This document shows positions 5,624-47,227 of a stretch of DNA of 64,000 bases, in pieces. Where the stretch lies: the NCBI GenBank assembly GCA_973895155.1, contig OZ316895.1:15630816-15694815 (forward strand), in the 5' to 3' direction. Under the pieces are notes generated by a model that was not told where the DNA came from, ran no database searches, and was given only the letters and a program-made list of their open reading frames with translations. The stretch is from Marsupella aquatica (lineage: Eukaryota > Plantae > Marchantiophyta). A program made the position numbers and the translations under genes. Numbering within the stretch: the first letter of the stretch is position 1; each line of letters begins with the position of its first letter.

Positions 5624-6077
5624 AAGCAGGGAAACAAAATCGATTTTCTCCAACCCCAGGGGCAGTACTATAGTAGTAATTTCATGGCTTTATTGAGCGA
5701 TGCTTCAGTTTGGAAAACTTCTTCCACAGCATGGCTGGCAACAGTACGCGTGTATGCATTAATGAAATTACGCTAGTCCTGAGCAGTGACTACAGGAGCA
5801 TAGAGAACATTCATCTCGAGTGCTCTGTGGGTCACTTGATTGACTTTGCTACTTATGAAAGCAGGGAAACAAAACCGATTCTCTCCAACCCGAGGGCAGT
5901 ACTACAGTAGTATTTTCACGGCTTCATTGAGCGATGCTTCAGTTTGAAGGACTTCTTCCAGAGCATGGCTGACTACAGTACGTTTGTACGCATCAATGAA
6001 GGTACGCTAGTCCATAGCTGTGACCACAGCAGCATCGAGAACTTTCAAGTGCTCGATGGATCACTTGATTAACTTCC
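5624..6077. repeat. Diverged tandem duplication of ~235 bp just 3' of the germin gene
   Basis: AGCAGGGAAACAAAA.CGATT.TCTCCAACC..GGGCAGTACTA...GCGATGCTTCAGTTTG...TCACTTGATT occurs at ~5624-5850 and ~5860-6077. Confidence 0.85.
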
Positions 6078-6085
6078 TAGCTTTC

Positions 6086-7277: not shown

Positions 7278-8264
7278 GGTCGCCCTTGCTGGCTGCTCAA
7301 TCCTCGTGCAGTGATCAAGAATGACAACAACTGGATCCTATTCTTTCCTCAGTAAGAAGGATGTGTCAATCCCGAAGTCGAAAATGATATATCAACTAGT
7401 GGAGAAGCAGATTTATGTTAAAACTCGCAGATGATAAAGTAATTTACAATTGTGAGCTCGTACGCTGGACTTGGACGACTTTCCATAGTAAATGTTACAC
7501 AGTCACTCGAGACTTCTGCTGCCACTTCATGACCAGGATTGACTCCGGAAACCGAGCTTGCTGGGGTCTGGACCGCTATTTAGTCAGTCTAGGCAGCAAA
7601 GAGGTATGCAACTGAGCTGCTGGACCCACTTTGGGATAAGAGTGATCGGGTGCATGCCCCGTTGAGTGGAGAAGGTTCAAACGGGTCTGGTCTCTTTCAA
7701 CTGGCAGACTTAGAATTAGTTTCGACACTAGATGTGGACCATAGCTCATCACACTAGTGAGCAGATGAGGACCATTAGTTCATCTCACTATAGCAGTGAT
7801 ATTTCCCCTCTTCCCAGCTTGTTCGGGTTAATTTTTGCACATTTATTTCCAGTTTGGTGTTTGTCGGCTGTGGACTTCTTTTTTGTGTTTTGCATTGTCC
7901 TTTGTTTGAATGGCCATGTTTGTAAATAAACTGACTGATTTCATACAGCAGGACTGGCGTGCGGGCAGACGCAAGCATGCCAAAGTCAAATGGGGAGTCT
8001 GCTGCGATGTTCACGTCACTCTTGTCACAGAATACCCCGATCGATGGATGAAGCATCAAGCATCAATTCTATAAAAAATGACGTCCACATCCGTGGGCGG
8101 AGTGGGATATGCTACTCTATGACCAGGATTACAACCTTAGTTGTTTTTCCGGATTATGGGGCCCGATCTTATTAGTTGTTTTCCCGGAATGTGGGGCCGA
8201 GTGCTTTGCTGTGGGTCTCTGGTCCACTCTCGGGTACGAGATTGGGTATCTGAGCGTGCTGTGT

Positions 8265-10945: not shown

Positions 10946-13134
10946 AAAACAGATTTTTAGTTTTCACCAATTTTATTAAAAATATAGAAGAAGTTTCAAA
11001 TTCCCCAATTCAAATCCAGACTGAGTGTGCATTCTCCTCTAAAATGCACCTAAAATTGCAAAGAGAAGAATCATGAAGGGTATTAAGTAGTTGGACTGGA
11101 GGTAGATCTTCTAAGGTGGAGTACATTGCTTCACCTCAATTTCATTTTTGGCACCAATAGTGGTTCAAGGTCATGGGGGCCCTAAAATGACACCATAATG
11201 TATTTCTTGCACACTATTGTACAAAAGGGCAGTATTTAAACCATTTTGTTAAGCCTATTGTGATCACATGATTGTAGGTGTTTACAGTTTAGGTGGTCAC
11301 GGGCCAGCCTCATTTACCAAACTTATTGTATGAATGGCAGTCACTTTCAATGGGACGCTCAATTTTTAGGGGGACTACATTCAGTCAGACTGGTGAGGAG
11401 ACAGACGATATGGAAAGATTGTGGCAAAAGTGAAGCTTTGTCGGGGAGGGGCTTGTGTAACACTAACTGGGGATAATGGTGGCAAAAAGTAACAGTCAAG
11501 TGTCAAAATACTCTCATAGTGTTCAATGTAAAATTGGTACGAAACCATTTTTGAAGTTTCCTGTTTTCCATAATCTTCTGCCCAGGAAGTCATGATCATA
11601 AACATTATTGTGTATCATATTTACGGACCCCATGAGAGGTCCCTTCCAGAATTCCTGGCACCAGAGCGTGCCACATTAACAACAATCGCACCAAACAAGG
11701 CTCGTCGGTTGTGTGAATCAAATTTACAATTTTCATTCGTGTTTGCGTCAAATTGAGTGTAAATTTTGGGACGCCATGCCATAAAAAGAAATGTAAAAAT
11801 TTAGAAATGCAAAGAGCAAGACGGGTAAAACTGTCACCTTGTAACCGTTTTAGTTACGTCTCTAATTTTAAAAATTAAATTCAAAGATTTGAAAAGTATT
11901 TTTCATATAATACACAATGACTATATAGCATGCTCATCCTGGAACATGCTTGGAGTTTTTTGTCTTGTAGTGATTTGAAAGTAAATAAAATATGAAAACA
12001 TAACTGGAAAGATTGGTGCACAGTGACCAATGAAAAGTACAATCAAGGATGCTAGGATGTGTGCACTTAATTCAATGTCCTCATGAATGACACTCATTTC
12101 AATAAAAACCATAAACTTAGGAAAGATAGACATGAGGGGAACTTAAGACACAGTCATAATCATTTCTCTCATTCATGAGAATGTTCAAGTGGTGGGAGCC
12201 GTTCATTTCATCTCTAATAAATCACAAACCTTAAAATTTATAAGGGGGCTGCCAAAATAAGTTCAAAATACTTTAGATACTAAAAATTAGAGGGGTCCAT
12301 AAATTAATTAAAAATGTATATGATACACAGGCGCCCCTTGATAAGGCACATTGAAATAAAAATATGTGACATGAAAACTCTGAATAAGACAAAATCTGAA
12401 AGGTGGATTCACCATATAGCAGTTCCAACAATTTCTAATAACTAACTTGATAACTACCTTGTTAAAGGGTAACTAGCACATGGAGAAAAATTTCCAGCCT
12501 TTTGCAATTCAGGCAAACTGCCAGCTATGGTCGGAACTTGAACTCAATGAATTCAATACAATTCATTTGATCAGACATTGATCTGGTTTTGAATGGACTT
12601 GCCACAAATTGACTATTGACTCTCTTGAGAATTTGGTTGCATGTAGGGAAAAGGCCTGATTTTGACAACTGCTTGTGATAAATCATGTTGTCGACTTTGG
12701 CCTGCAAAGCAAAGTATTCATGTGGCAGTTGAAAAAATGTCAAACTGCTCAAGCCATTGCTGAATGGGTCCACAATGATTTTATGAGAAAATCTATCCTA
12801 CTTATTCAACTCAACATGACTACCAGCTTCCCTTCCTAATCATACTTCTCTCTTCTTAAAGCTAGCTTTGCCCTAGCTTCTCCATTTGGTGAATAGATGC
12901 GTCAAGGTCATGAGGCTATTAATCTCTAATTCAAAACTAACCAAAGTCAGACTTCAGTGAAATCTCCAGAATTTCCAATTATTTGAAAGTACATTGACAA
13001 ATTAATCTTCTACAAATTAACAGGGCTCAACTACTAGAAAGCTTAGGGTTTGTTGTTGAGAAAAGTAGTCTTCTCAATTGATCTTGAGAAAGTAGTTTTC
13101 TCAACTCAAAGTACCCATGATCAGCCTATTCATT

Positions 13135-13410
13135 AAAAGTGTATTATTATTTGATTTATGTACATTTGGGCAATGAAAAGTGTACTTTTGGGCTTGGAAA
13201 AGTGTACATTTGGCCAATGAAAAGTGTACATTTGGGGAGAAAAGTGTACAATTGGCCTAAAGAGTGTATATCTGGGCAATGAAAAGTGTAAATTTGAACA
13301 TCAAAATAGGTACATTTGGCTTTAAAAGTGTACATTTGAGTACATTTGGCCTAAAAAGTGTACATTTGAGTGAAAAATGCATACATTTGGCTTAAAAAGT
13401 GTACATTTGC
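13135..13410. repeat. Left subterminal repeats AAAAGTGTACATTTGG, ~12 copies at ~20-bp spacing
   Basis: Directly visible; near-palindromic core AAAGTGTACATTT. Confidence 0.9.
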
Positions 13411-13660
13411 CTACCAACTCTTCTTATAATCATTTAAAAGAAAGGAATGAATAGAAAAATATTTTTAATTATGTAGAAAAAGCAAACATTCATATTCATA
13501 ATGATCAAAAGTTTAGAAAATGAGGAGATAGTATCAAATTAAAACTATTAGAATAGTAAATAACTAGTACGTAAATTACTATGTTTGAATGAGTGACTAT
13601 CTTAGTTACATAAAAACTAGTAACTATCTATTTAATCATTATAGCTTCTAACAACTAAGT

Positions 13661-16600
13661 CTACTTGTCCATCCTTTGAAGATAATTTTGGACAGTTTGT
13701 AGAACATTTTGAGGGATCTTCAAACCTCTGTCTGCCATGTTTTCTTCTTTCATTCCAGATTTAAAACCATACATTGCAGAATTTTGCATACTGCCAATGT
13801 TGAGTATTCTCACCAAACCTTGGATCTCGTTCCCATGTCTTAGTGGACATGAAACAATTTAGATACTGCGCACTCTCAGTCACATCAAGTTTAGAGTGTT
13901 TAGGCCTCCACCATTCAACTGGGAACATTGGAGCGTACTGTCGAGGCAGAGAAGGGTTTGTTGAAGATGTAGTTGGGACTTCATGCTTTGGGTCCACCAA
14001 ACCCAAAGCTCTCACCAACCAGAAATGACCTCCACCATTTTTATTCTCCCAATCATCCTCGGGTCGAAGAAATACAAAGTTTCCTTCACAAATATCCTGT
14101 AAAGGAATCCATCGTCCTTGTTCTTTCTCAGCTCGAGATCCAACAAATGGTGTTGCTTGATCTTCCATCTCTTCCAAGACCTCATTTTGAAGAGCCGTCA
14201 TCTCTGCATTCTCCTCATCTTCACTTGGAGGACCACTTTGTTCCAGTTGGTTGACCTTGTAACCAGTGCCGTGGTTAGTCTTAGGCCAAAATCTGTTTTT
14301 CAAGGGAAATTGAGTACTTCCCTCCCCTTCTAGTGCGAGCCCATTTGTCAACAACTCCACAATTCTCTCCCAATATTTCACAAGAGGAAATCTTCTCTTA
14401 TATGCTATAGATGTCTCATCAGTGCAACTCCTTCTCAAAAAATCAAGGTACTTGTTAAGAAATGGGATAATCTCTTCAGATTTTTTGTGTATCTCTCCAA
14501 TGGATTTAGCTAAGGGCTCTCCACTAGGTAAAAGAAGAGAATTTGTTGTCAGATCTGTTGCCCAAATGCACCTTCCACCAACTGGAGCCCAAGCTTGCTT
14601 TACATGGGACTTATACTGAAATATTGGTACATTATCTCTCATAGAGAAAAGAAATGATACAGGTTTTGAGTGACCTTGAATATCTTTCACCTTGAAAGTT
14701 TGAAGATATTCTTTGTAAGATGCAACTTCTTGTATCAATCTGGGAACTAGATGAATGCTCTTGCATTCCCATACCTCTGCCATAAGAGCAAGGAGGGTTG
14801 CAACTTCTTTGTGCTCAACTTGATATGATACCTTTGAAAAGAGTGCATCAACATCTTCGTGCGTATGACCAACCATTAGAAAAGATATTTGAACAGTTTC
14901 AAATACTCCTCTACTCACAAGCTCGCTACAAAATGCCATGACAGTCTGGTTTTTGTTGTCCTTTGCTGAATTATCCATCTGCAATGTTAGGTACCTTGGC
15001 AAGGGCTTGAACGATGGACTGCCTTGCTCTCCTTGCATGTCTTCTCCTTCATCCTCATCTTGCTGGTTTGGGTCGGTCTCAGTCCGACTCTCAGCTCCAT
15101 CTTCAGAACCAATATACCTATTCACCGGTATATTCTTTGGTTCCAAATAACCCGTCAAAAATGCTTCAAAGTCAAGTAGGGCTTGAAAGAAAGGTCTGTG
15201 AGGTTCCCAACGAAGGCCATCCAACATGTCACCTGTCTTGTCTCCATTGTACTCTTCAAGGTCTCGAAGACACTTAGCCAAGGATGTCACTGTGAAATCG
15301 GCATCTTCTGGCCAAAGGCCAGTGACACTAAAGTGTGCATAAACTCCTGGATCCCTCCCGTGGGTCAACATCCCTGTGAGAGCAATAGGTAGCGGCATTC
15401 CATGACCCGAAAGAGATTTAGGAGTACTAATCATTTTTAGAATCCATGTCTTTGCTTGATCCATCTTGTTGTGAATAATGCAAAGATATTCTCCTGGGTG
15501 TTGTTTGGCCATCACTCGATGAGCGTAGTAAACATATCTACGTGACATTTGCTCACAAAGATGTTGCGCTTGCTTTTCTTCAATTTCAGCACGTTCTTTT
15601 TTCCTTCATTCTCGCATCAAACTGTCTTTGTATTCACAACAAAGAGTACACTTGGCAAATGCACCATCTTTATGAAAACTGAAGTTTTCAAATGAGTTGC
15701 TCTAGATCTTGTAGAGAGTATTCTCTGTGACAGGAGGAAGCCCTTCTTCCTTCATCTTTGTTCTCACATCTTCTAGAATCTCTAGCTTCTTGTAACACGC
15801 CGGAAGACGGTACTCAATAGAGTCTATCCCATGTGCCCAGGCTCCATAAGGCATATGAGGCATGGGCTCTGCATTTCGAGTCAAAAAAGCCTCCAACAGA
15901 GCTAGTGCATGCAAGGTATTTGCCCTTGTTTTCATCAAGCCCGTATTGCCATGGAACCCAATTTTGCAACCCTCCACATATCTCCTTTTGTAATCATAAT
16001 ATTTGGTGTGGCTAAAACCGTGGATAATTGCAAATGCATGTCTGCATATGACCATACCCTTAAGAACATGGTGTCCCTTATCACAAACATCATCCGCTAT
16101 AGTGAAAGAGGTTGAAAATGTGTGACGTTTTTGACTTGCTTGACATCCCATGAAATTCCATCCTAATATCTTCAATGTTTTCCCTTGGCATAATGAGACA
16201 ACATTTTTGCTTGCAACAATTTTCTCTTTTCACGTCATCAATTGACGCCTCTATTGTTTTTGAAATTGCCTTGGTTTCCAACAACCTCCTCTTCTTTTCA
16301 TTCGGATCTACTTGATTCCTCTTGTTAAAATTGTACTGCCTTGAACGCAGTACTCCTCTATCACTTACATCCGCATTGAGTTCATCCCTATCCATTGAGT
16401 CCATCCTCTCAGAACCTTCCACCAAAATGTCTGACAAAAATTTTCCATTTGCAACTAGTTTTGTTGAATCAATCCGCCATCGAATCAAACTCACTACTCC
16501 CTTGTGGATGTTGGGAAAGTATTGTGCTACCACAACATCTTTCCCAGCAATCCCAACATGGTCATCACCAAGAATTTCATCATCAACTGCTGCTGTCACT

Positions 16601-17440
16601 TGAGGGAGAGTGATCATTCCAGTAGCAACCATTTTGGTTCGATCCAAACCAGTGTAGAGTTCAACCAACTCTGACATCCAGTTTGCCCGATGAAAATAGT
16701 CACACTTAGTGTCCATGGTGTTCGCCAAACAAGACTATGAAACAAAATTTGCCTTGTCCTTCTGCTTCTTAGAGGAAGATTTGTTGCTCCCATCAATATC
16801 AACATTCCATACTTTATTGTGGACGTCAACTACATCCCATAGAACCCAGGAGCCCTTTGCCTCTTCAATTGTTGCAGCTCCACCATGTGCGTAAGGTAAA
16901 GTCTTACTACCATGAATCATATCTGTGATTTTTACACTAACCCGAGATTCACCGAGTAATATGTTATGACATCTCTCCATTGGATCGGTCTTGAAAACAA
17001 CTCCAAAGGCCACACAATGGCCAGAGATAAACATTTCAACCTCATCGCCTGGCCTTAGGGTGGTTGAAGCATCCTCCTCTACATTTGCAAAATTATGGAT
17101 GTTGTTATCTTTTCGAGTCGAACAACTACCAATACTGATGCATTTTTGAGTAATCTTATCAGTAGATCGATATGCACATGACATATCAAAATGACACATG
17201 AGTCAATGGCATCATGAAGATTTTCTGCCCTAGGCATTGGAAAAGGGAGCTTCCTAGTCTCACCAAAGGCCTTCTCAATGAGAACCCCAATTCGATTCTC
17301 TCCCAGCACAATATTTTGAACACTCTCTCGCGGATCTGTCTTTTGAACTGTCCCATTTCCAACGTCGTAACCATCGATTGTCAAGGTAACATCATCGCCC
17401 CTAGAAAACCTTTGAGACATCCTTTTCCTATTATCCTGCA
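13661..17440 (-). pseudogene. Transposase pseudogene: three Transposase_23/TnpA-like modules, Cys-rich region, DUF7869/Sola-like DDD core, C-terminal BAH/SH3-like segment
   Basis: Stitched from ORFs 17079-17471, 16735-17199, 16090-16728, 15702-16175, 13761-15548 and a frameshifted tail ending TAG at 13661. Motifs CCKQKCC, ICRHAFAIIHG, FAKCTLC, IHNKMDQ, LQMDNSAKDNKN, FLMVGHTHEDVDALFS. Several frameshifts and in-frame stops; splice acceptor near 17441. Confidence 0.85.
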
Positions 17441-17479
17441 CACTAAAAAAAAGGATTAAAACCAAACTCATGCAAATTT

Positions 17480-18205
17480 TGATTCAGACTACTATCCTCC
17501 AATTTTGGATTTGGACTAGGACCATTCGAGTCCGGATTTGGACTGCAATCCTTCGGGTCTGGATTTGGACTACGATCCTCCGACTTTGGATTTGGAACGG
17601 GACCATCCAAGTCTGGATTTGGACTGCAATCCTCCGAGTCTGGATTTGGACTACAATCCTCTGATTCTGGATTTGGACTGGGACCATCCGAGTCCGGATT
17701 TGGACCGGGACCATCCAAGTCTGGATTTGGACTGCAATCCTTCGAGTCTGGATTTGGACTATGATCCTCCGATTCTGGATTTGGACTGGGACCATCCCAA
17801 TCCAAAGTTGGACTAGGACCATCCCAATCCAAAGTTAGACTAGGACCATCCAAATCCAAACTAGGACTTGGACCATTCCAATCCAAACTTGGACTCGGAC
17901 CATCCCAATCCAAGCTAGGACTTAGACCATCCAAGTCCAAACTTGGACTCGGACCATCCTAATCCAAAGTTGGACTCGGACCATCCAAGTTCAAACTTGG
18001 ACTCGGATGATCCCAATCCAAAGTTGGACTCGGACCATCCTAATCCTAAGTTGGACTTGGACCATCCCAATCCAAACTAGGACTTGGACCATCCAAGTTC
18101 AAACTTGGACTCGGATGATCCCAATCCAAAGTTGGACTCAGATGATCCCAATGCAAAGTTGGACTCGGATGATCCTAATCCAAACTTGGACTAGGACCAT
18201 CCTAG
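17480..18205. repeat. 27-bp minisatellite, ~26 copies, many units an imperfect palindrome
   Basis: Units TTGGACTCGGACCATCCCAATCCAAAG (right half) and TTGGACTGCAATCCTCCGAGTCTGGAT (left half). Confidence 0.95.
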
Positions 18206-18894
18206 ACCAACCCATGATATAATGGGAGATAAACTTCAAACATCTTAAGCTAAGAAAAATCCAAATTTAGGAAGACCCCGTATTTTACGGATCTCCCTAT
18301 ATGGTGTAGCCTAAAGTTTGCGTGGTCTTAAGGCAGACCCTAATGTCTACATACAGTTTCATGAAATAATGGAACCTTATATTTGAATGCATTAACCTTA
18401 TACTCACCTTAAGTAGTATTAAGATCTGGTAGAAGATGAATATCACATCCAAGGGGTATACATTGTTGTTTGAATATTGGTAAAAACTTCCCAGAACCTT
18501 GAAATACAAGCTATATGCCACTAAATCTTGGGAGTAAAAAACAAACTGAACCCTAAACCACACATGTCTGTAAAAGATAAACTGAGAGGACTCCAAAAGT
18601 CAAGAAGCTGGCTAAGCTGACCCAATGAAGGTAAGTGGCTCAATACATAACACTTTAAGAGAAACTCCACTCCGGATTACATGGAGCTTAGATTTGGGAA
18701 ACTAGAACAAGAATGAGCTCCGAAGTGGGCGTCTCCCAAATTATACCCTTCGCTTGAGTCGGCTCAACCGGAAATTGCGTGAAGATAAGGGTTGAGTACG
18801 CGTTCACCTTAGCTTGCGGACACACCTTATCTTCACAAGCCTAATTGCGCGGGGACTACCATGGAAGGCTGTTAGGTAGGCAGGATATCAAGGA

Positions 18895-19240
18895 AGGAAG
18901 CCGTATGCAAGGTGAGGGCAACGGGCCGTACGCAGGAGCAGGCCGTACGCCAAAGCAGGCCGTACGCAGGAGAAGGAGGCAACCGGCCATACGCAGGCCG
19001 GGGTGAGGCAGGAGGGGGTAAAGGGATGGAGAGGTCCAGCAAGGACCTCATTCTCATTCTCTCACTCCTCGCTCTCTCGCTCTCTCGCTCTCCTCTCGCT
19101 CTCCTCTCGCTCTCCTCCTCGCTCTCTCGCTCTCCTCCTCGCTCTCTCGCTCTCCTCTCGCTCTCCTTGCTCTCTGCTCTCCGCTCTCCGCTCTCTCTCC
19201 GCCTCCCCGCCTCCGCCTTCCGCCTCCACCTCCATTCTTT
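18895..19240. promoter_or_regulatory. Probable divergent promoter/leader region of the transposon: GC-rich GCAGGCCGTACGC repeats and a (CTCTCG/CTC)n pyrimidine tract
   Basis: Lies between oppositely oriented genes; CT-rich tract 19050-19230 resembles plant Y-patch/GAGA leaders; function inferred. Confidence 0.45.
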
Positions 19241-19464
19241 TTTATTGCCCTAGATTGGATGCCTGCTAAGATGCCACGTGTCACGCTGCCATGTGTTAGA
19301 AAGATGGAAGTGAATCACGTCCTTGTGATGTCCTACGTGGAAGAAACGGAGGAGTTTGACCTCTCCTCTATGAGCGACAGTGTGGAACTAGCACTCAAAA
19401 ACTCCAGACAATTTCAATCACGAATCCCTAGTAAGTATCCATCACCTATTCTCCCTAAGTCTTA

Positions 19465-19671
19465 GAGGACTGGGACCATCCCAATCCAAACTTGGACTCG
19501 GACCATCCCAATCCAAACTTGGACTCGGATGATCCCAATCCAAAGTTGAACTCGGACCATCCCAATCCAAAGTTGGACTCGGATGATCCTAATCCATCTA
19601 GAAGATTGAATCCCGATTGTAGGAGCAAGTCTAAAACCATCTCAAGTTGGACTATGACCATCCTAATCCAA
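19465..19671. repeat. Second cluster (~6 copies) of the 27-bp palindromic unit
   Basis: GGACTGGGACCATCCCAATCCAAAC, TTGGACTCGGACCATCCCAATCCAAAC etc.; follows a GTAAGT donor-like site at 19431. Confidence 0.9.
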
Positions 19672-19710
19672 CAAGAGTTATTCAAATGTTTTAAAGGTTT
19701 TAAGTCTAAC

Positions 19711-22700
19711 ATGGATGACGTTTATGATGCAAGGAGCGATCTTGTTGTTTTCAAACCCGCGATTGCACCGACCCACTGCCTGGACGGATTCTTACTAGAT
19801 GAGAGATCCCCACGCTTCTGATGGGGGCTTGAGTTCTCAAGAACCCCGCTTAATAATGAAGTGCCATCAACCATGATTGAACCTGTTTTGACCTTAAAGT
19901 GCAGAGAAAATGATAGCCTGACTTTTGTTTGCGGACCTGTGGTCTCTGTTGGCATTGGAGGGAGAGGGATGAATTTGGTCATTGTCGAGATGCACGATAG
20001 GTCCTGTTGGGTTAGAGTTAACCTTCTGTCAAAGGCATACTCCTCTGAATTCAATGTCGAATGGCACGCAAGTGGGGAATTGAGCGTTTTGTCAATGGGA
20101 TTTTTTCCAAAGACCTATGACACAAAGAAGTTGGTCGCCGAGGTAACTGGTATGCTTCCAGTCAACATTATGTACGGGTTTCAATATTTGAAACTCAACA
20201 TGATGAAGCACCAAGGCAATTTTTCTTTTGCAACTACCTGGACGTTAAGCAATTTACTTGAGAAAGCTGGATTGTTATTGTTGGAGTTGGAGGAGCCTGG
20301 TGTTTTAATTGATAAGGATGTTGCATTTGCTCCCAAGTTTGATTTAGTCAAAGCAAAGCAATGGATAGAATCTTTGTCCAAGACAAGAAAGCTTCCAGCG
20401 GTGAATACAAACCCTGTGCCCGAGCAAGCGCCAGAGAAAGCTCCAGAACCTACAACAGAGACCGCGGGAACTACAGCAGCGACCTCTCAAAGAGCAGTGG
20501 GAAAACAAAAACAAAGCCAAAGGAAACCTCCGGTTGAGAAGCCGAGTACGAGAAGCCGAGTTGAGAAGCCAGTTGAGAAGAAACGTCCGGTTGAGAAGCC
20601 GATTGCAAATGAAAAGAGGCCAAGACAGAAGAAGAAACAGAAAATTGACAGTGCCATCATGGATGACACTACAGAAAACCTGACAGTGTATTCACAAGAT
20701 GTGGACGAGCAGTTGGACGCTCCTGAGGAGAAGAAGGCCTTAGAAGGTAATGAGGTACTACAACAAATGGAGCAATATTATACGTTTGGGATCAATTCGA
20801 TATTTTCTATTCCTGTAGACAGTATTTTCCCTGCGTCAGCAAGACTCTGTTACATCATGTTGAATGCAGACCATGTAAAGGAGGTGGCCAATTCCGTGAT
20901 AAGAAATCCGGGGCATGAACCACACATAGCAGACTTGATTCCTTACACTACAAAACATAGAAACCTAATGCAGTATGACAACACAGAATCAGATAGGAGG
21001 GACTTTGTAGCAGCCGTGAAAAAGGGCAAGGTTCAATTCCTTGCCATTAGCGGTCAACATTCGGCCAGAGCAGCCAGATGGATTCAAGAATGGGCAAACA
21101 AGGATGCCAAGCTGACAGCATTGGCGAAAAAGCTGGAATTTCGAAAGTCAAGAATATTATCTCATCGAACACCATCGTCAATATTAGTTGAGCATTCAAT
21201 GTGATCTAATGCGATCAATAGCATGATGGTGTTTCAGTCATGCTTCAATTATACAGTCGTTCATGCTAGGCGACAATTTGTGGAATGTGGAAAACCTAGC
21301 CGGCCAAAACATGGGGACAACAAAACAAACGCTCAAGACAATCAAAAATTTCAGGTACGAAGTGTTACTGCTTGATGGGTACAATACCGTAGATTCATGC
21401 ACATTCAGTAGAATATTTCCACTGATATCGCCTAGTTTTGCGTTGGACTAGGATGGTCCCAGTCCAAATGGATTCATACACATTCGGTAGAATATTTCCA
21501 CTGATATCGCCTAGTTTTGCGTTGGACTAGGATGGTCCCAGTCCAAATGGATTCATACACATTCAATAGATTATTTTTCCACTAATACTGTCTAGTTTTG
21601 TTCTGGACTGGGATGGTCCCAGCCCAAACTAAATCATGCACATTCAATAGAATATTTCCACTGATACTGTCTAGTTTTGTGTTGGACTGGGATGGTCTCA
21701 GTCCGCACCTGAGTGCTTTCAAACAATTGAGTTATGGAGAACTAACAGACTTTCCTTTGCAATTGTAGGATTGGTTGGCTCTTGCAAGAATGACCATGGG
21801 AAGGAAAGATTGTCAAAATGTTTACTGGTTACTGTTTGCGGACAATGCTCTTTTTGAGTTATGGAGTTTGGTATGCCAGTTGTGGTTGGATGGGAAACTT
21901 CCCGATGGAGCTGGGGTAGAAGGAAATGAGAAGTCTGAAAAAGCAATTACTGTTGCCATGTTTCGTTATTTTGATGGTGAGTTGATCTCACAACGAGACA
22001 TCACAAGAATACTGACACGGGTGAAGTCAGGAAAGGTATTGCTAAAGAAAGATGCCTCTAATAAATCAGACATGCCATCTATAGAGGAGTTGGCCAAAGA
22101 TGTGGAGATCGTGCGGAAACTAAAGTCCCTTATTGAAGACTACTATTGCACCAAGGATGCGGTGAATTTCCCGGCAAATACTAATTGGGGGAAAGTAGTG
22201 GAGGTTCTTCCTACGCTAGCAATTGATTCAGAGTTCAGAAGGTGTCGAAGAGCCACTGGCAAGGTCTATCTTGCCAACCTTTTAAAGCCAAATCATACAC
22301 GGGAGAGCGCAATCTTGCCGACGACATTGGCATTCCGCCTAGATGATTTACATTACCAGAAATTTGGTGGAGGATCACGTTCTCGGACCCTACCATGGGT
22401 TACATTTTTTAGCGACAATCTCATGAAGACCATTGATCCAGAGTCATTGCAAGAAGCTCCTCCGACCTGCCCTCTTGCCATTGTTGATTTTAGCCGGCTT
22501 CCGCAAAAACAATGGACTGAAGCAGAGATTCTTGTTCTCTTTGAATATATTGTGGAGCTTCCACAAAATCCCACGATTGTTGTGACAATAACAGTTCATC
22601 CTGGACAACTTGCATGAATGTCCATGGTGCCCTTCGGAAACTGGGACAAGAGAAAGTTTTGACCATTCACATTGAGTATGGGAGTTATTCTTGAGATGAT

Positions 22701-24149
22701 CAACCGCACCCTCATGACTCATGTTGGGGTGGGGGGATTGAAGAAGTTATCTTTGCAGGGATTTCTCGAGACGAAGACGTCAATTGGAATGAAGTTTTCA
22801 AGCCCAACTATCCAAAGCCAAAATTCTTGTATACTTCAAAGGATGTTGATTACGAAGTATGCAAGATCGACAACTAAGGGAAAGGGGAAGGCTAAGGAAT
22901 CAGATGAGGGGACACAAAACGACGACCTAAAAGTGGTTTTGGACCCGGAAGAGGCCGTCAAGATTATGAATATGGCCCCTCGATTTGAGATAGTTGGCAA
23001 TCGCAGAGGGTGGGTTAATCCTCATGCCAAACCCACGCGGATGATCCGAAGGATTATTGAATCCTTGTCAGAACCGGGAGATTTGGTTCTAGATTTTTTC
23101 TCCGGTGGCCAAGTCATGAAGGCATCATTTTTTTGCGGATAGGGAATGCTTTGTTTATTGTGACTCTCACTCCGAGAGGCATTTTGTGGAAGCTTTTGCT
23201 TCCTACCTTTGCGAGAGAGTTCCCTCACTTAAAGCTCATTGTGAAACACTTGCTGAAAATTCTCGATAATGGGCTACCGTTGTTGCGGTTGTAGCTGTCG
23301 CTGTTGAATCTGATGGTTCTGAGTCTGAAGAAGTTGCTGATAAAGTGGCTGAAGGCGTAGAGGCATCAGAGGAGGCATATGTCAAGAATTTGGATTACCG
23401 TGTTGGTCAAGGTGAGCCTTACGATGTAGATGATGATATTGGACTTGCACCAAACCGTTCATCTGGTTTAGATGACATCCCTCCGGGGCCCAATGAAGTT
23501 TGAACAAGTTGATGATAACTTGGACAAGGATGATCCCAATCCAACAACGCCGGGAGGACAGATGGAGCAACTGGAAGGAGCAAGGGTTGATACGTTTGAT
23601 CATCTTTCTTCAACCAATCTGATCAATGAAGGCGCAACGAGGCTTGGAGATTCAAATGAAGCTGAAACTAAAGAATTGACTCGGGGGGAGACTGGCGGAT
23701 TGCCTGACATTCCGATCAATCCAGGAGGAAATGCATCAACGGTTGCTGACAACCAGGCAGGTGCTTCAACTTGTCCTGAGACACTCTTTTCAGCTTCTGA
23801 TGACAAATTGGTGTTTGTTCGTTCACACTCGGGGAGTCCTATTGTCGTTCCACTCTCAAAAAAGAAAGGAAATAGAGTTGGATCAACTGGATGGAGGTCA
23901 TTGGAATGCGATGCACGATGTTACGTGTGGAAAAGTGGGCCAAATCAAGGCCAAGAAATATCATTGGATGCTGCTCCTTCAATTCTCAATAAGGAGGAGT
24001 ATAAGAGGGGAGAATTGGGGTTGATAACTCCTGTTTAGACTTCACCTTATTGGGTAGAACAAAGTACTTCAGATGTCAATTTTGAAATCCAACAGGAGCT
24101 TGGTGCTGACATGATTATTGATGAATACGGATCTCTTATTTTGGAATGA
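19711..24149 (+). pseudogene. Transposon cargo gene: N-terminal unknown domain, K/P/E-rich linker with NLS-like stretch, ParB-like domain, helical region, beta-class N6A/N4C DNA-methyltransferase-like domain, acidic tail
   Basis: ATG 19711 is in frame with ORF 19861-21204 across two TGA stops. Phase-0 intron 21355-21768 (GTACGA..CTAAC..TGTAG) joins ORF 21775-22617. ParB-like LNADHVKEVANSV and FLAISGQHSARA; MTase-like LAIVDF..IEEVIFAG..HAKPTRMIRRIIESLSEPGDLVLDFFSGG..(D)RECFVYCD. Several frameshifts; 3' end approximate. Confidence 0.75.
21390..21705. repeat. About four ~88-bp tandem units inside the cargo-gene intron, most ending in the palindrome TTGGACT(A/G)GGATGGTCCCAGTCCAA
   Basis: GATTCAT.CACATTC..TAGAATATTTCCACTGATA...CTAGTTTTG.GTTGGACT.GGATGGTCCCAGTCCAAA repeated. 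Confidence 0.9.
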
Positions 24150-24321
24150 AATTCATCCTTTGATTTTTTTTTTTCATATCAATCTAAAATACTTCTCGGT
24201 CTCACAGAATGCGCTCACCAATTAAAGTCTCCATATCCGTCTACACATTGTGAGGCTTCTAAAAATGATATGTAGGTTAATTTTCTTTTTTGTCAGCCAT
24301 TGTCTTGTATTTTTGGACTGA

Positions 24322-25345
24322 GACAATCCTAATCCAAAGTTCACTTTTGGTCTTTTCTCTGAGAATGATGCACTTGCAGAATCGAGACCTGGTCCTGTCA
24401 AGCGGAAGTTGCTGATTTTGGACCTTAATAAAATACTTTGGGATTCTATTGAATTCCAAAGCAAGGGCACATCCAGGAATATTGTCACCTCAAGTGCATT
24501 GGGATAGAAAAAATGGTATTAGTCGCATGTATACAGAACGACCAGGGCTCCATGAGTTTCTAAAGTTGGTTTTTGACAGATTTGACGTTGCAATTTGGAC
24601 ATGTGCTGGGATACCGCGAACAATGAAAATGTTGAACATGATGTTCACTGATGAGGAGAGGTCAAAACTCCAGTTTGTATTCACACAGGTGGAAGATTTT
24701 GACAAAGGCGTGACATTACAAACGGAAAGGCAAATGTGCTACTAAAGGATTTTCAGGTGGTATGGAATGCATTTGGAAATCTATATGATGAAACCAACAC
24801 CCTCCTTGTGGATGACTCCCCCCTTAACTAAGGCATTTGCCAACCCAGACATGACTGTATTATTTCTAGTGCCCTACACGCATGCCAATCGTGGAGATAA
24901 TTTTCTTCTAGCAATTCTTTGGCCATGTCTTGAGAGACTATCACATGCAAGTGACATTCGATGTTATCTTCTTCTCAACTCTCCAAAGTGGTCTCTTTTG
25001 CACATGAAGAGAGACAAGGCAAAAAATGAGATTACTTATGATCAACTTAGCAAGAGATTTGCAGCAAAAATTTGGAAGTCACAGTTTACGCATAGTGTGT
25101 TGGACCTCAACAGCAATGAGATCCCTTGGAATGTAAAGCACCGTATATGTAGTTTACGTCCTGAGGCGGAACTTGACAATGCACTTGTCAACTCACTTGC
25201 TAAATCATTTTTAGGAAAGGACTATTCAGGTCCATATAGAGAAAATCCCAGACACTTTTTGCGGGAGATTATAGCCATTAGGAACAACACCACCAGATTC
25301 AACTCCCTGAAAATAAAGGGCGTTGCAACCGTGACAATAGGGTAG
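24322..25345 (+). pseudogene. FCP1/NIF-family HAD-like phosphatase pseudogene (transposon cargo); start uncertain
   Basis: Across frameshifts: RKLLILDLNKIL (HAD motif I variant), RPGLHEFLKLVFDRFDVAIWT, LLKDFQVVW, NTLLVDDSP, KAFANP. Confidence 0.8.
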
Positions 25346-25654
25346 ATAGGAAAGGAGACAGGGGCACATGCTCAAATACACATTGTATAGAGCACTTGGT
25401 TTAGATATTTAATTGACTTGTGTTAATCCCATTGGATAGTACCACAAATATTTTTGTATTCATTGTAAATTTGCAGATAATTAGATAAAGATATTTTATA
25501 ATCTACATGGAATGATGTTATTTTGTTCACACAATATCTGGTCCTTAAATGGGGATGAAATATTTTTATAAGTTCCTATCCTCCACTGCTCTGTGAATTA
25601 TTAAATAATATAATATGTATTATTTATTAATATAATACTAATGTGATTCGGCCT

Positions 25655-25737
25655 ATAAAGTGTACATTTAGAGACACAAAAGTGTACATTTGGGTGTCTT
25701 GAAGTGTACATTTGGGGCCATAAAATTGTACATTTCA
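25655..25737. repeat. Right subterminal repeats AAAGTGTACATTT, 4 copies
   Basis: Same motif as at the left end, ~21-bp spacing. Confidence 0.88.
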
Positions 25738-26104
25738 AGACTCATTTGTGAACAAAAGAAAATACATTTTTAATGAATAGGTTGATCATGGTACTTTAGT
25801 GGTTGAATACAGTGTCATTCAATGCCCAAATTAACTAAGTAAAAAAATTGTGCCTTGGGTTTATTAATGTTTTAAAATTAGCTAAAGTATCTCATATATT
25901 TTAAGTGTTTTAATGTCTGCTAGCATAGCATTATGAACCATATTAGCCTCTCAAAACTCAAGCTCAAAGCCCTCATTTTACTGGTCATTATGAAGACTAT
26001 TGCAAAATCACATTAGGAAAAGATAATTTATCCTATATTTTCACTAAATCGTGTAAACTATCTCAACATAATAAAGTGTGTTACCAGATCATTTTGGACC
26101 ATAA

Positions 26105-26448
26105 TGTTGAGCATAGATGACATTCGCAATTGCAAGCCCATGAACCATCCAACGCACAAGAGTCGACACAGAGAGATACGTGGTTCACCTCCACATGAGG
26201 CTACGTCCACGGGAACACACAAGAGCTTTACTGCACTCTAGGCCGACCGACTATACCAAGCATCCACAGAGCAAGCTCTCCCTATCTCTCAACTAGCTCC
26301 GTAACAATGAGCCTAAGTTCCACCAGGGTCTGGCATCAGCCCTGGCTTAATACACAATAGCACTACCGCTAACATTAGCTAAGTCCTAACCCAAGTTAGA
26401 CTAACTGTGGTTAGCTCATGAGTCACAAGACTAGAGCAATATCTAACA
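26105..26448 (-). mobile_element. Solo LTR (344 bp) of the adjacent Copia family
   Basis: TGTTGAG...CTAACA; 5-bp TSD CATAA on both sides; highly similar to LTRs at 26594 and 32916. Confidence 0.95.
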
Positions 26449-26593
26449 CATAATAGATAGACTCACACAACTTGAGCTAAAGCTAATATCACATACATTA
26501 TTTTTACTCAAACAAGGCCTCAAAAATGTAGCTAGCGGGTCAGACACAAACTAATTACGTATATGTTTATGGTCCTGATATGCTCCTTAATGG

Positions 26594-29500
26594 TGTTGAG
26601 CATAGACGAATTTGCAACTGCAAGCCCATGAACCATCCAACGCACAATAGTCAACACAGAGAGATATGTGGTTCACCTCCACATGAGGCTACGTCCATGG
26701 GAACACACCAGAGCTTTACTGCACTCTAGGCCGACCGGCCATACCAAGCATCCACAACACAAGTTCTCCCTATCTCTCAACTAGCTCCGTAACAATGAGC
26801 CTAAGTTCCACCAGGGTCTGGCATCAGCCCTGGCTATATGCACAACAGCACTACCGCTAACATTAGCTAAGTCCTAACCCAAGTTAGACTAACTATGGTT
26901 AGCTCATGAGTCACAAGACTAGAGCAATAGAGCAATATCTAACAAACTCTCTCTTGACTCTTGTCTTGGGGACTGAACTAAATGCTACCATATGGAATCC
27001 TTAGCGGGAAGTTCTAGACAATCACCGAACCAGGTATCCCCCTAAAAACCACAAGGGTTAACTAAGGGTTAACTAGAACTAAGCCGTAGCCAAATAGGAA
27101 TGAGTAATCCATATACAAATAGTCGCACATTGCTAAATAACTCTACTTGCACTACAATTGCAAAACCTGCAAAGTAGCACGGTGTTTTGAGAAACTCTCC
27201 AAAGGAATCACTTTGGTAAAGGCATCAGCGGGATTGAGTTTTCCATCAATCTTGACTAGCTCAAAAGTTTTATCAGACACTGCTTGCCTGATAAAATGGT
27301 ACCTGATATCAATGTGCTTCACCCTGCTATCCATCACCTGGTTAGCAGCCAAGTGAAGAGCACTCTGACTATCACAGTTTAGAGACATTTTGCCATACTC
27401 TAAACCCATCTCCGTGATCAACTTGTTCAACCAAATTGCTGCCTTTGCTGCTTCTGTTGCTGCAACATACTCTGCTTCTGTAGTAGACTGAGATATACAC
27501 TTCTGCAAGGTAGATTTCCAACTGATACATCCTCCTCCAAGAGTAAATACAAAACCAGTTACAAGTAGACCTCCTTGTATCTAGACAGCCTCCATAGTAA
27601 GAATCTACATAGTGAACTAATGTTCTATCTGATCTCGCATCAAATAGTAATCCATAGTCCTATGTACCCTTCAGATACCTGAGAATCCATTTCACAGCTT
27701 CCCAATGTACCTTCCCTGGATTTGACATGAATCTGCTAACCTTGCCTATCGCCTAGGGCCAAGTCAGGCCTAGTACAAGTCATCAAATACATCAGACTGC
27801 CTACTGCCTTCTCATAAGGAATCTTAGCCATCAGACCTTTCTCCACAACATCCATAGGAGAGAAAGCTGATGATAACTTAAAATGTGAAGCTAAAGGAAT
27901 ATTCACTGGCTTACAATTTTCCATGTTGAATCGTGCAAATACTTTCCTCGCATATTGGCCTTGACTCAAGCACAACTTTCCAGTTTCAGAGTTCCTAAAA
28001 ATCTCCATCCCTAAGATCCTCTTGGCCTTACCAAGATCCTTCATCCTAAATTCAACACTCAATTTTTCCTTGAGACTGACAACCTCAGATTGATCTTTAG
28101 CCATAATCAGTATGTCATCCACATAAATCACCAGAATGATGAAACCAAATACATCATTCTTGACTGATTTCGTATACACACAAGGATCATATACCATCCT
28201 TGTAAAACCTTGAGCAAGCATGAAATCATCAAACCGCTTGTTCCATTGTCTGGGAGACTGCTTCAATCCATACAAGGACTTGAGCAATCTACAAACTAAG
28301 TTCTCTTGGCCCTTCTTCATAAAGCCTAGTGGTTGTCTCATGAAGATCATCTCTTCCAAGTTGCCATAAAGAAAAGCAGTAACAACATCCATCTGATCCA
28401 TCACCAGACCAAAAAACACAACAAGCTGACACAAGATCCAAATTGTGGAATACTTAGCCACCGGTGAAAAGACCTCATTGTAGTTCACTCCTTTCTCCTG
28501 AGTGAACCCCTTGGCAACAAGCCTTGCCTTGTAGATCTTATCTCCATCCTCTGAAGGACTGTCCTTCAACTTGTAAATTAATCCACTTGTTGTCCACCAC
28601 TTGTTGACCTCTTGGAAGCTTCATGAGCTCCCATGTCTTGTTGTCACTCAAAGATTGCAACTCCCTCTACATTGTTGCATTCCACTCATGCTTCTGCTCT
28701 GAAGCACAAGCCTCACTGTACAAAGAAGACTCTCTTTCTTCCAAGATCAAAGCCATATCATCATCATCAGGTGCAATGTCAATATCATCTAGCTTAGATG
28801 AGTCTGCCTATTGACTATACCTGGTAGGAGCTCTAGTAGAACGATTGGAAGTTCTTCTAGTAGATGACTCAGGCTGATCTGCTGCTGCTGGTTGAATTTG
28901 AGGTACCCCAATAAAAATCTGCTCCTCTTGTTCCATCATAGGAACCAACTCCAAGCCCGAAGCTTCTCCATCTCTCCTGTCATGAACAACATCATGACTA
29001 ATCTCCCCCTCAACCCGGTCCGGGATGGGAGATTTTCCATTGTCAGTATGGGAGTCCTGAGAACTCTCCCCTTCCTTTGATGATCTGGATTCATTAAAGG
29101 ACACATCTCTACTGACAATTAGCTTATAGGTTACTGGATCCCATAACCTATAGCCCTTCACACGTTTCTGATAGCCAAGGAAAATGCACTTCTTCAACTT
29201 GGACTCTAGCTTGGATCAATGCTGGGAAGGTGTAAGCACATAAGCATCACATCCAAAAAATCCTCAGATGTGAGTAATCTGTTGGACGCCCGTGCCTCAT
29301 TTCAAATGACGTCTTGAATCCAATAGAACTGGATGGAGAAAAATTTACCAAATAAGCTGCAGTGTTGACAACTTCAGCCCAAAACTCATGTGGTAAGCAT
29401 GATTGACTCAACATACTTCTCAAGCGATCCAATAGTGTTTGGTTGAGTCTCTCAGAAATACCATTCTGTTGAGGAGTATAACTTATTGTGAGATGGCGGG

Positions 29501-32500
29501 TAATCCTCTGCTCCTTACAATACGTTCCAAATTCCCCGGAACTATATTCATCGCCATTATTTGATTGAAGATATCTCACCTTATTACTAGTTTAATTTTC
29601 AACTTGGGCTTTCCATTCCTTAAAAGTGGCAAAAACATCAGACTTACTGTGAATAAAGTATATCCACACATACCTTGAGTAATCGTCTATGAACGTGACA
29701 TAGTATAACCATCTAGAATGTGAGGGAGTAGGGGCTGGACCCCACACATCACTATGTACATACTCAAGTACATGCACTATCTAGAATCTAGTCATCACTA
29801 CCTGGATTTGACACTACGTTGAGAGCAGAACCTTGACATCACAATATGTCATCGTCATCGAGTAAATCTATCTCATGCGAGCTCGATGCGGCGTTAGCAG
29901 ATGCAGTAGGGACCTTTACTCGAAAATCCCTTTTCATGTGGCCAAGCTTGCCACAATTCCAACATGCAAGAGGCTTCCTCTCTTGCGATTTCCCTCTGGA
30001 TTTAGATCTCCCCCTGATGTAGATCTAAACTTGTTCAACTTGTTTGAGCGTTGCACTGCTCTCCCACGGTTCACATTCAGCACAGTGCTAGAAGAAGATG
30101 CTGTCTGTGTTTGACTCAACTTCTTCTGAGTATCATTAGACAGTAAGGAGCTCACCACCTTATTATACAAAATGGACTTTAGATCTCTATACAAGAGCAC
30201 ATGTTTCAAGCCTTGATATGACGGCAGTAAGGAGCTTAGCAGAAGCAAGGCCTTATCCTCATCTTCAACTCCTTTTGCCAGGTTTGATAGATCCACCACT
30301 AGACTGTCAAACTCATCCAGGTGATCCTGCAACTTGCTCCCTTCCTTGAGCCTGAGGCTCATCAAAAGAGATTTATTGTACAATCGATCTGACGCATCTT
30401 CCCGATAGTACTTCTCTGTTAGAGCCTTGAACAGTGATGCACAGTCGTCATAATCATCTAGCTTCTTGATGATATGCGGCTTGAGGTATAGCATCACTGC
30501 ATTGACAGCAATCACCTGCTTCTGTCTCTACTGCTTCACATAAATCTTCTCCTCTCCATCATACTGCTCTCGCAAAGAAAGCAGATGAGCTAAGCCCATG
30601 GCCCAAAGAACACCCTTCACTTGCTTCTCCCACAACAAGTAATCAGTACGACCATCATACTTCTCCACCTCAAACTTCACTCCTCCAAATCTTGCCATCT
30701 CTCTCTTCTTCCCAACTACCAATAGCTCTGGTAGTAGTACAGCTTCCTCCACTGCACGCCGCACCGGTGAGCGTACCGGTGATACTAGTTCCTCCTCAAA
30801 CGGTAGCAGCTCCTCCTCAGACTCTCCATTTGATCGTCACGATCCTGAAGCTCCACCGATGCCAATTCTTCCAGTATCCTCCGAGTCACTCATATGAAAC
30901 AATCACGAAAAACCATTTTTTTTGGAAACTTCTCATAAAACTCAAAACTCAACACTGCCACGTAGCCCACGAAGCTAGGAGTCCAATACTGAAAGCCAAA
31001 ATCAAAATCAAAAATTTGAAAGAAAAGTTATTCAAATTTCGGTCGGGGTGGGGATAAAACCTTGGGAAACTCCCTTGTTTTGACCACCTCGGAGAATAAC
31101 CAAAATACCAAGTACAACCCATCGTCAGAATTGGGATGTGATTGGTGCACCGCGTCACTAACTCCAATGGCAACGTCCTCGCCAAAAAAGAACCAAAAAA
31201 GTTATCGTTTGGCGGACAAAATCTTCATGGGATGGCCAAAAAACAACTCTTTGTTTTTTGGGAATATTCTTGCACAGCCCGATAGGTCTCACAGGGGGCC
31301 ATTCCCCCTGTCGGAGCGGTTAAAATGGAGGGCGACAGGTCCCGACACAAGAGGAAACAAGAGGGAAGAAAAACGCTCGGGGGGTTGACTATCAAAAATC
31401 TTAGGAACCATGTGCGATCCAAAATAAGTATTTTTGATATAAATTAACTAAATATTTAAAAAGCATAGGAGGCAAAAGGAGGTATTATAAACTCATGTTC
31501 ATAGAATATTCTCTAATATATACTTTTTATAAAGTAAAATAGATTATTAATATTAAAATAGAGAATATTATTGGGATACTTTCTTTATAAAATAGGTCTA
31601 TTTATATTAGGCTAGGATCGCACGTGGTACCCCAAAATATACACTTAGTTAACCCCCCGAGAAAAAAACGGCTAAAAATAGGGCCCTAAAGGGGGTCCAA
31701 ACACACCTTAATAACAAAATACACTCAAAAACGCGGGCCAGGCAATGTACAGGGTATGCGCGAGTGTGGCCGGGGTAAGCCTGGGCGAATATGGGCGTAA
31801 AGGAGGGAATACAAGGCAGGGCCGGGGCCGGAGAGAGCGACCGGCGGCAGTTGCTCGCCGTCGCGAGGCGCAGGGCTGGGTAGGGCTTAAACACGGCCGG
31901 CAGGTCGCATGTTAACCCTAAGGGGGGGGGGGTGCGGGGCCTTAAGGGGGAGACGCAGCGAGCCCCTTAATGTACATGGGCTCGCAAAGGGCCGGGGGGG
32001 TAAACGCGGCCAGCTGCGGCTGCAAATGCGCCGGCCGGCACTGCGCAGCTTGCCGCTGCAGTAAGGAAAAATTGGGGTGCGCGGGGGAGATACCAGAAAA
32101 GAGGTACGCGGGGCCGGGCAAGTGTAAGGGTAGGAGGGGGGCTCGAGTGTGTGTATACACACCCTTGTGTGTGTATACACACAAGAGACCCCCTCTAAAA
32201 TGAAAAATTAACCCTTAAAAACTAAAAATCCGTTTACACACCTGATCAGCCGCAGTTTACTTGAAGAAAACGATGACCTCCGACGGGTGAAGTTGCCAAA
32301 TTTCACCGGCACAGTCTGCAAGTCCAGCACTGAAAAAAAGTTCCGCCGCGTCGCCTTCACCCCGCGTCAAGTGCCAATCTCAGGCTCAAAAGGACCGCCT
32401 CACCGAGATCAAACCGTTGAGCCGTAGCACTTTGCGTTTCTCCCACCGAGTCGTACATCACAAAGAGAAACCCGGTTCAGATGGGAACAAGCTCCATAGC

Positions 32501-46900: not shown

Positions 46901-47227
46901 TTTGAATTTGACGTGCAAGTTTTTTTGTGATGATGGCTCCTGCAGCTCACTTGATCGTCTCTGCGGCATCTGGGACTTCCGGTTAATCTGGTCTGAAGAG
47001 CAACAGAAGAAATTAAGAACCTCGCCCGGTTTCTCCCCCTGTCCAGTGCGATTTGTCCCTGCGGACGGACGGACAACAATTTTGTGACGGAGAGCCCTCA
47101 CTTCGCTCGGGAATTCTTTTGATTACTCCCACGAAGTTCGAATTGAAGTAATTAGGGTTGGGGCTCGGGAATATTTTCGATTGTTGACAGGAAGTTTGAA
47201 TTGAAGTGACTCAGGGTTGGGAAAGGG

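Follow-up and report, generated by a model that had tools for sequence, protein, structure and literature searches.

A degenerate copy of a large, Sola-like transposon family in Marsupella aquatica: three co-amplified genes and an element-specific palindrome

In Arabidopsis, VANC proteins are encoded as accessories by VANDAL elements, terminal inverted repeat (TIR) transposons of the Mutator superfamily, and bind the sequences of their own elements to counter silencing. The design closest to the one reported here was published for Sola1-1_Ec32 of the brown alga Ectocarpus. Sola1-1_Ec32 is 21.5 kb in size, bears a 4-bp target site duplication (TSD), and encodes on the strand opposite to the transposase a 1104-aa protein comprising ParB and N4/N6-methylase, for which the binding and modification of its own element were proposed (PMC12477816). 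The Plavaka (EnSpm) elements of Bostrychia possess the PAG2/PAG3 cassette, which encodes a ParB-like domain in addition to a methylase of PF01555 (bioRxiv 10.1101/2025.02.11.637652). We analyzed a stretch of 64,000 nucleotides of Marsupella aquatica (contig OZ316895.1, positions 15,630,816 to 15,694,815; hereafter termed the window), in which a transposon with the most likely span of 13120–25786 bears three pseudogenes, namely those for a transposase, a putative ParB-like and methylase-like protein (gene 2), and a NIF/FCP1-like protein (gene 3). We are highly confident in the identity of this transposon as a member of a Sola-like three-gene family.

The three genes constitute a single TIR element that was co-amplified and is present in multiple copies, and the copy in the window is dead. 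The initial annotation had proposed that the three genes form a module and decayed together as one unit. Their co-amplification was borne out by contigs from four public runs (at most four samples of two studies), as in one of these runs the transposase and gene-2 contigs matched those at the right end in depth. The depth in run X2 was 17.6 for a flank contig of 2.7 kb that has the same sequence as the window, and the contigs of the element had depths of 454.8 (16071–17059), 383.1 (20911–21376), 430.8 (21880–22691), and 431.4 (25710–25766), amounting to 22–26 times that of the single-copy flank. In X4, where the flank had a depth of 36, eight joints of diverged contigs (13613 to 23945) showed depths of 2156–2575, and a further two showed 1705 and 1439. 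To us, these figures suggest a young family, with around two dozen copies that are almost identical in sequence, and in addition a sister family, with the caution given by the tool itself that a summed contig depth is not a copy number. As the frameshifts at 13782 and 24825 were absent from 717/731 and 677/695 of the X2 depth, respectively, both are private to the window copy. The description of the three genes as similarly riddled with damage holds only roughly, as the lesions are denser outside the transposase, in which three stops and three frame changes were found over ~1,240 codons by tblastn with homologues; the counts made by eye were ~3 frame changes in ~300 codons for the methylase-like part and ~3 in ~200 codons for gene 3.

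The transposase gene noticed initially was confirmed on the minus strand (13664–17420) by a match to Pfam DUF7869 with an E-value of 7.7e-44 and by tblastn with homologues of 1230–1321 aa. Its product comprises N-terminal repeats similar to Transposase_23/DUF8039 of the homologues, a CxxC motif, and the DUF7869 core (HxKMD...QMDN...GHTHEDVD); PF03017 was present in one of the homologues, P0133. Among the homologues, the first motif read HDKMD in all of the 69 sequences with the motif, the second Q[LM]DN in 121 of 125, and the last was of the GHTHED[VI]D type in 127 of 130, the third catalytic residue being E or D. In the alignment, the first catalytic Asp is replaced by Asn in the window transposase. 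The closest named proteins were those of the liverworts Calypogeia fissa (64–67%) and Riccia sorocarpa, and the window transposase grouped with liverwort proteins in the core tree with support values of 96/93. The window transposase had no sequence match in PDB and no match in IMG/VR, and no protein fusing transposase and cargo was found among the 161 proteins examined.

Sola transposons are of the DDD type, create 4-bp TSDs, and occur in Physcomitrella (PMC10741241). We regard the element as a likely member of the Sola superfamily, because it combines a DUF7869 transposase with a 4-bp duplication, the latter being found also in two relatives described below (ATAT in L005 and TCAT in L034); note that the link between DUF7869 and Sola rests on the TSD, motifs, and the algal precedent. 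The TIR of ~30 bp and the size of 12.67 kb fall within the ranges of Sola elements (TIRs of 11–1124 bp; 2–9 kb in size, with some over 15 kb). Sola1 prefers AWWT as the target (PMC3845634). The target letters were CATG in the window, and the pooled flanks of other copies began with AATT, ATAT, AATT, and GATT in the four runs with low agreement. CACTA/EnSpm elements are characterized by CACT(A/G) ends, a 2–3-bp TSD, and a Transposase_21 domain. We rejected this placement, as the ends here are ATCA, the TSD is 4 bp, and no Pfam match to Transposase_21 was obtained; a small Transposase_23-like N-terminal repeat is all that the window element and CACTA/EnSpm have in common. With good confidence, we infer that the Sola-like transposase would cut and paste the element, thereby making the 4-bp duplications.

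A repeat search of the window detected an inverted pair of 39 nt with an 87% match (13115–13153 and 25753–25791). We set the most likely span of the element to 13120–25786, with the ends ATCA..TGAT and a CATG duplication (13116–13119 and 25787–25790), because 25786 is the last position that other copies have in common with the window, and empty paralogs begin one position further on. The left TIR (13120–13153) starts with ATCAGCCTATTCATTAAAAG and matches the right TIR (25753–25786), which ends with GAATAGGTTGAT, at 24 of the first 26 nt. When the contigs of the four runs were aligned on the right end, those of other copies departed from the window mostly after 25786 (9, 9, 6, and 8 contigs in the individual runs, among the matches listed), and the agreement among their flanks past this position was 0.47–0.50; minor classes of contig ends were seen at 25780, 25781, and 25785 among the same matches. 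The summed depth dropped 36- to 183-fold from bin 25781–87 to bin 25788–94, and the contigs of the paralogous, empty host repeat began at 25787 (four records among the matches listed). In addition, one X2 contig had left-flank-like sequence fused straight onto 25799.

These boundaries differ from the limits of 13114 and 25791 proposed initially, as the outer five or six bases assigned to the TIR then are target DNA, the target being palindromic. The ~31-bp TIRs and subterminal repeats reported in the initial annotation are otherwise present. The subterminal arrays comprise eight copies of AAGTGTACATTT-like 12-mers with a period of ~22 bp on the left (13154–13413, +) and four copies in the same orientation on the right (25646–25735, +), and are likely to represent binding sites of the transposase. 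Likewise, the empty site under the CATG reading is AAAGTACCCATGGTACTTT, not AAAGTACTTT as proposed before. A GATC duplication, which is also of 4 bp and gives the span of 13123–25783 with the ends AGCC..GGTT, agrees with the AAC..GTT ends of relatives but disagrees with the contig ends, and we consider it unlikely. Earlier target models of TA, TAC, and GTAC were rejected by the contig ends and the right boundary. The transposon was inserted in a multi-copy host repeat (~12500–13119 and 25787–26100), in which a near-perfect palindrome marks the point of insertion.

Gene 2 (approximate limits 19711–24038, +) was recognized from open reading frames (ORFs) and is divergent from the transposase; the accessory gene of Sola1-1_Ec32 is likewise on the strand opposite to its transposase. 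The product comprises, in this order, an uncharacterized N-terminal domain, a basic linker, a ParB-like domain, a helical middle region, an amino-methyltransferase-like region, and an acidic tail. No homologue was found among longer proteins, and a single one, P0121 encoded in a 1.9-kb contig, was found among the proteins of near length, being 37% identical over 19759–21357. P0121 had no phage match; for gene 2, no match was found in IMG/VR, nor in the JGI metagenomes, which were searched with poorly chosen patterns. The match to P0121 ends at a predicted phase-0 GT..AG intron (21355–21768, +), which contains a 79-bp repeat with four copies of the palindrome described below. The conserved ParB-like domain with an AISGQHS motif (20770–21309, +) and P0121 share 62% identity, in contrast to the diverged linker. 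In the Atlas, the cluster nearest to 20755–21201 was fungal DUF3723 with a score of 0.95, and no score exceeded 0.82 for the middle region of gene 2. The AlphaFold models of the ParB-like domain had pLDDT values of 33 and 41, and the fold searches were uninformative. Altogether, the ParB label, drawn from the DUF3723 neighbor in the Atlas and the AISGQHS (GxH) motif recognized by eye, is inconclusive. As a side observation, DUF3723 is an accessory gene of Starships, and its proximity hints at a ParB-like accessory common to unrelated giant elements.

The region similar to beta-class amino-methyltransferases (22390–23266, +) is split into ~4 frame segments. It matched Pfam N6_N4_Mtase with an E-value of 2.7e-7 (31.2 bits against the cut-off of 26.7) over the profile positions 163–191 only. 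The signature is confined to the end binding S-adenosylmethionine (SAM), where motifs X and I (HP.KP...DxFxG; ~22999–23112) are present and match those of the beta-class RsrI (E-value of 1.2e-4), MboIIA, CcrM, and PvuII, as well as phage methylases. Of the ParB-methyltransferase fusion proposed initially, a partial methylase signature was thus recovered and the ParB portion received no statistical support. The likeliest position of motif IV reads DFSR (22486–22497; E-value of 0.026 against two eukaryotic relatives, in a weak register), which requires seven base changes to become DPPY, and neither DPPY, SPPY, NPPY, nor any other [DSN]PP[YFW] was found in the three forward frames of the window copy over 19601–24100. 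Because the catalytic motif was not found, the idea that the cargo modifies the DNA of its own element is doubtful.

Two other groups of methylases were compared with gene 2. MpDN4MT1 of Marchantia is a prokaryotic-type, beta-class amino-methyltransferase producing N4-methylcytosine (4mC; bioRxiv 10.1101/2021.02.12.428880), but it belongs to the active genes of the host, has the motif TSPPY, and lacks additional domains (PMC8885841), and we rejected a link between the two because gene 2 lacks SPPY. The phage ParB-methylases encoded beside terminase (PMC4738411), represented by that of the WO phage (L081), share motifs X–I with gene 2 and have the order of ParB_N and N6_N4_Mtase that is putative in gene 2, but are ~410 aa in length and retain an intact DPPY, and their N-terminal profile gave no match to gene 2. 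Few such methylases were noted in land plants (Iyer 2016, PMC4738411).

Gene 3 (24391–25345, +) encodes a NIF/FCP1-like HAD domain. One fragment matched Pfam NIF with an E-value of 3e-4, and the motifs DLNKIL (motif I), RPGLHEFL..WT, KD, and LLVDD were recognized by eye over changing frames. The score of 20.9 bits is just under the cut-off of 21.8. In FCP/SCP phosphatases, motif I is DxDx(T/V), which is replaced by DLNKIL in gene 3; a DLN variant occurs in plant FCP1-homology proteins. We describe gene 3, proposed initially to encode an FCP1-like phosphatase, as NIF-like or phosphatase-like.

The element contains 39 copies of a 25-bp imperfect palindrome with the consensus TTGGACTCGGACCATCCCAATCCAA, whereas scanning with a profile built from the array itself gave no copy in the remaining 51 kb of the window or in 20 shuffles of the non-array part. 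On average, 15.1 of the 25 positions are self-complementary, against 6.1 in shuffled sequences. Two arrays flanking the divergent intergenic region account for 32 of the 39 palindromes, namely a 27-bp tandem array with 26 scored copies at the 5' end of the transposase gene (17426–18214) and a second array of six copies just upstream of gene 2 (19465–19671); GC-rich 17-bp repeats and a CT-rich microsatellite (18924–19233) lie within this intergenic region. Besides the four copies in the predicted intron, single palindromes are located within the transposase gene (15063), within the tail of gene 2 (23520), and where gene 3 starts (24313–24337). The initial suggestion that the cargo reads its own DNA or counters host silencing gains support from these element-specific palindromes, the role of which we infer.

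We compared the cargo in the best 80 of the 511 metagenome loci with related transposases, many of which are short or decayed. No cargo match was obtained by tblastn at an E-value of 0.01, and profiles were needed. The profiles of the window gene-2 domains matched none of the 80 loci, and the gene-3 profile matched three with an E-value of 1.6e-7, all of which represent one insertion (L005–L007). We rejected L006, L007, L025, and L026 as independent loci, as their flanks are common with L005. L005 possesses two NIF-like domains opposite to the transposase, one of which is above the Pfam cut-off (26.7 bits), together with GGTGGCCACC palindromic arrays (the domain scan covered 74 of the 89 ORFs listed). 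The L005 transposase is 29% identical to that of the window and belongs to a separate clade (100/98). The methylase profile matched two loci, L072 and L065. Thus, the kinds of cargo recur with transposases ~29% identical to that of the window, and a one-off capture is unsupported because similar cargo adjoins distant DUF7869 transposases.

Several of these loci deserve a description in their own right. L005:1131–12403 (11.3 kb, TSD of ATAT) and L034:441–15153 (14.7 kb, TSD of TCAT) are large, complete, Sola-like elements with GGTGGCCACC arrays. The related elements on moss-like contigs with a GC content of 33–34% have GTGTT ends, of the AAC..GTT type, and varied flanks. L072 (708–4283, −; 5328–6764, +) has an apparently intact DUF7869 transposase and, divergent from it, an ORF of 1191 aa with OTU, ParB-like (VDGMHR, by eye), and DPPW-methylase parts; judged from its sequence, it would be a good candidate for an active enzyme. 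In L065 (2360–5746 and 6743–9466, +), an ORF of methylase plus SET, similar to the red-algal PAG2, lies in tandem upstream of the DUF7869 transposase, and L051:2–679 is a fragment of Ulp1 protease upstream of a DUF7869 transposase.

As the best overall explanation, we lean toward the view that the window holds a dead copy of a Sola-like element, the accessory protein of which binds its own palindromes to stay expressed, probably with no methylation. The underlying mechanism, self-recognition by gene 2 without methyl transfer, is proposed tentatively. A dimer of the gene-2 product would use its ParB-like domain to recognize the 25-mer, which has two-fold symmetry, the palindromes massed on both sides of the intergenic region would serve as the binding sites, and the methylase fold, of which the SAM-binding end alone is recognizable, would act as a non-catalytic domain for gripping DNA or scaffolding. 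As a partner, the NIF-like product would either act on the phosphorylated transcription machinery or mimic its regulators. The gene-2 product would shield the divergent promoter from host silencing in the manner of VANC for VANDAL, which serves as a functional model by analogy; the Pfam scans of the window detected no similarity to VANC. A precedent for ParB accessories beside inverted-repeat arrays is found in the Bostrychia preprint and the Ectocarpus report (PMC12477816).

There are several points that weigh against this explanation. No contig spans the whole element, and the depths are not equivalent to copy numbers. Gene 2 has P0121, for which there is no genomic context, as the only homologue found, and the searches for homology to ParB gave no match in Pfam, PHROG, or PDB, the E-values of hhalign being 0.3–0.46. 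The upstream half of the methylase-like region scored no higher than shuffled sequences (12.0 versus 18.0 for the top shuffle), so the position of motif IV was set by eye, and one forced alignment places it elsewhere (TVHP). The loss of DPPY was observed in the decayed copy of the window only. No locus outside the window bears all three genes among the 80 loci, with no gene-2 match in L005 and no NIF match in L065 and L072. Finally, the palindromes could instead be sites for the transposase.

The gene-2 product may be a structural co-factor of transposition, which pairs the element ends or biases inheritance by ParB-style spreading and bridging. The distribution of the palindromes along the element from 15063 to 24313 fits this idea, as do the recurrence of such cargo in large elements and DUF3723, the Starship accessory gene, as the nearest Atlas cluster. 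Nevertheless, we find this role fairly improbable: the bulk of the palindromes flank the divergent intergenic region and not the ends, which carry a different repeat, and the ParB fold is unproven. According to another explanation, intact members of the family encode an active writer of 4mC or N6-methyladenine marking their own palindromes, as proposed for Sola1-1_Ec32. The similarity of motifs X–I to those of RsrI, MboIIA, CcrM, PvuII, and phage methylases, the DPPW retained in the L072 accessory, and the CG and GAT words in the palindrome are all consistent with such a writer, and the use of a 4mC enzyme of the bacterial type has been described for a liverwort (bioRxiv 10.1101/2021.02.12.428880). 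On the other hand, no [DSN]PP[YFW] is present in the forward frames, DFSR is seven changes away from DPPY, and the high-depth X2 contig covering 21880–22691 agrees with the window at all but 24 of the 813 letters; we therefore hold an active writer to be improbable.

We consider it quite improbable that genes 2 and 3 were simply captured and are carried along passively, with no role for the element. Both catalytic motifs indeed look degenerate (DFSR in the former; DLN for DxD in the latter), and most of the 80 loci bear neither gene (NIF-like in three, representing one insertion; methylase in two). Nevertheless, the ParB-like domain was conserved at 62% identity to P0121 while the linker diverged, like cargo recurs with transposases of ~29% identity, and short or decayed sequences are frequent among the 80 loci. 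The nesting of independent elements by chance within one TIR pair would agree with the lack of a contig spanning the whole element and with the higher and more variable summed depth of the gene-3 region, but is very improbable in light of the depths of the transposase and gene-2 contigs, which match those at the right end, one palindrome that all three genes have in common, and no internal long terminal repeat (LTR) or second TIR pair seen in the repeat scan of the element.

Other features were found in the window outside the transposon. A Copia LTR retrotransposon occupies 26105–33262 with three 337-bp LTRs (26105, 26594, and 32916) and matches to RVT_2 and gag, and a diverged, inverted copy of its LTR lies at 53552–53770. 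An element of the long interspersed nuclear element type with endonuclease and RVT_1 (39821–44024, −) is broken by stops. At 47210–48472 (+), an uninterrupted, apparently intronless frame of 420 codons comprises all KIN17 domains, being either a host gene or a retrocopy. An element of ~840 bp resembling miniature inverted-repeat transposable elements (54461–55302) has inverted arms of 212 bp (78%) and contains a direct repeat of 158 bp. A fragment of Cupin_1 (6834–7337, −) and the N-terminal domain of a 2-oxoglutarate-dependent dioxygenase (63360–63953, +) were also detected.

The transposon is real and unusual for land plants, and represents a variant of a design published in 2025. The initial claim of an undescribed family falls in part because the design of Sola1-1_Ec32, a Sola element with an opposite-strand ParB-methylase, has been published, and Plavaka is similar. 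Among the publications listed by our searches, there was no land-plant case, no FCP1/NIF-like cargo, and no methylase fold lacking DPPY/SPPY, and Repbase or Dfam could list a moss or liverwort element of this type. The window element resembles Sola1-1_Ec32 in being large and Sola-type with a 4-bp TSD and an opposite-strand accessory of ~1,100–1,300 aa, annotated in the alga as ParB-like plus N4/N6 methylase, and the best transposase match of the latter is a Physcomitrella Sola1. Compared by description, Sola1-1_Ec32 differs in residing in a brown alga and in having a 282-bp TIR with AACCG-CGGTT ends, in contrast to the ~30-bp TIR here. The available part of its description mentions no phosphatase-like gene or palindrome array, whereas the window element possesses gene 3, which is NIF-like, and its methylase-like region was found to lack the catalytic motif. 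The Plavaka elements of Bostrychia are also TIR elements with a multi-gene accessory cassette, tandem inverted-repeat arrays beside a ParB gene, and proposed self-binding, but belong to another superfamily; their methylase is fused to SET and their ParB to 2-oxoglutarate oxygenase, and no NIF-like gene is mentioned in the text available.

A survey of plant TIR elements restricted the candidates to 2–12 kb (PMC12973397), and elements of the size described here would be missed because of this limit. We further consider an extended and unlikely scheme, in which bryophyte Sola elements have an ancient means of recognizing themselves by a ParB-derived protein with a dead methylase fold loading onto parS-like palindromes, while the FCP1-like domain acts on the phosphorylation of the C-terminal domain of RNA polymerase. 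If true, transcription of the element would be maintained by an FCP1-like domain that liverwort-like and moss-like lineages have separately retained, plants would have a second anti-silencing system, independent of VANC, and the lineage that evolved sperm 4mC would harbor a mobile pool of genes for amino-methylases. With the present finding, the ParB-methylase accessory known from algae is extended to land plants. The finding also points to a possible loss of the catalytic site, and contributes an FCP1-like gene common to distant plant Sola lineages. Few anti-silencing proteins of plant transposons are known, and the present family supplies two partners amenable to testing, namely a candidate binding protein and a well-delimited 25-bp palindrome restricted to the element, in a lineage (probably the liverworts) with a transformable model plant.

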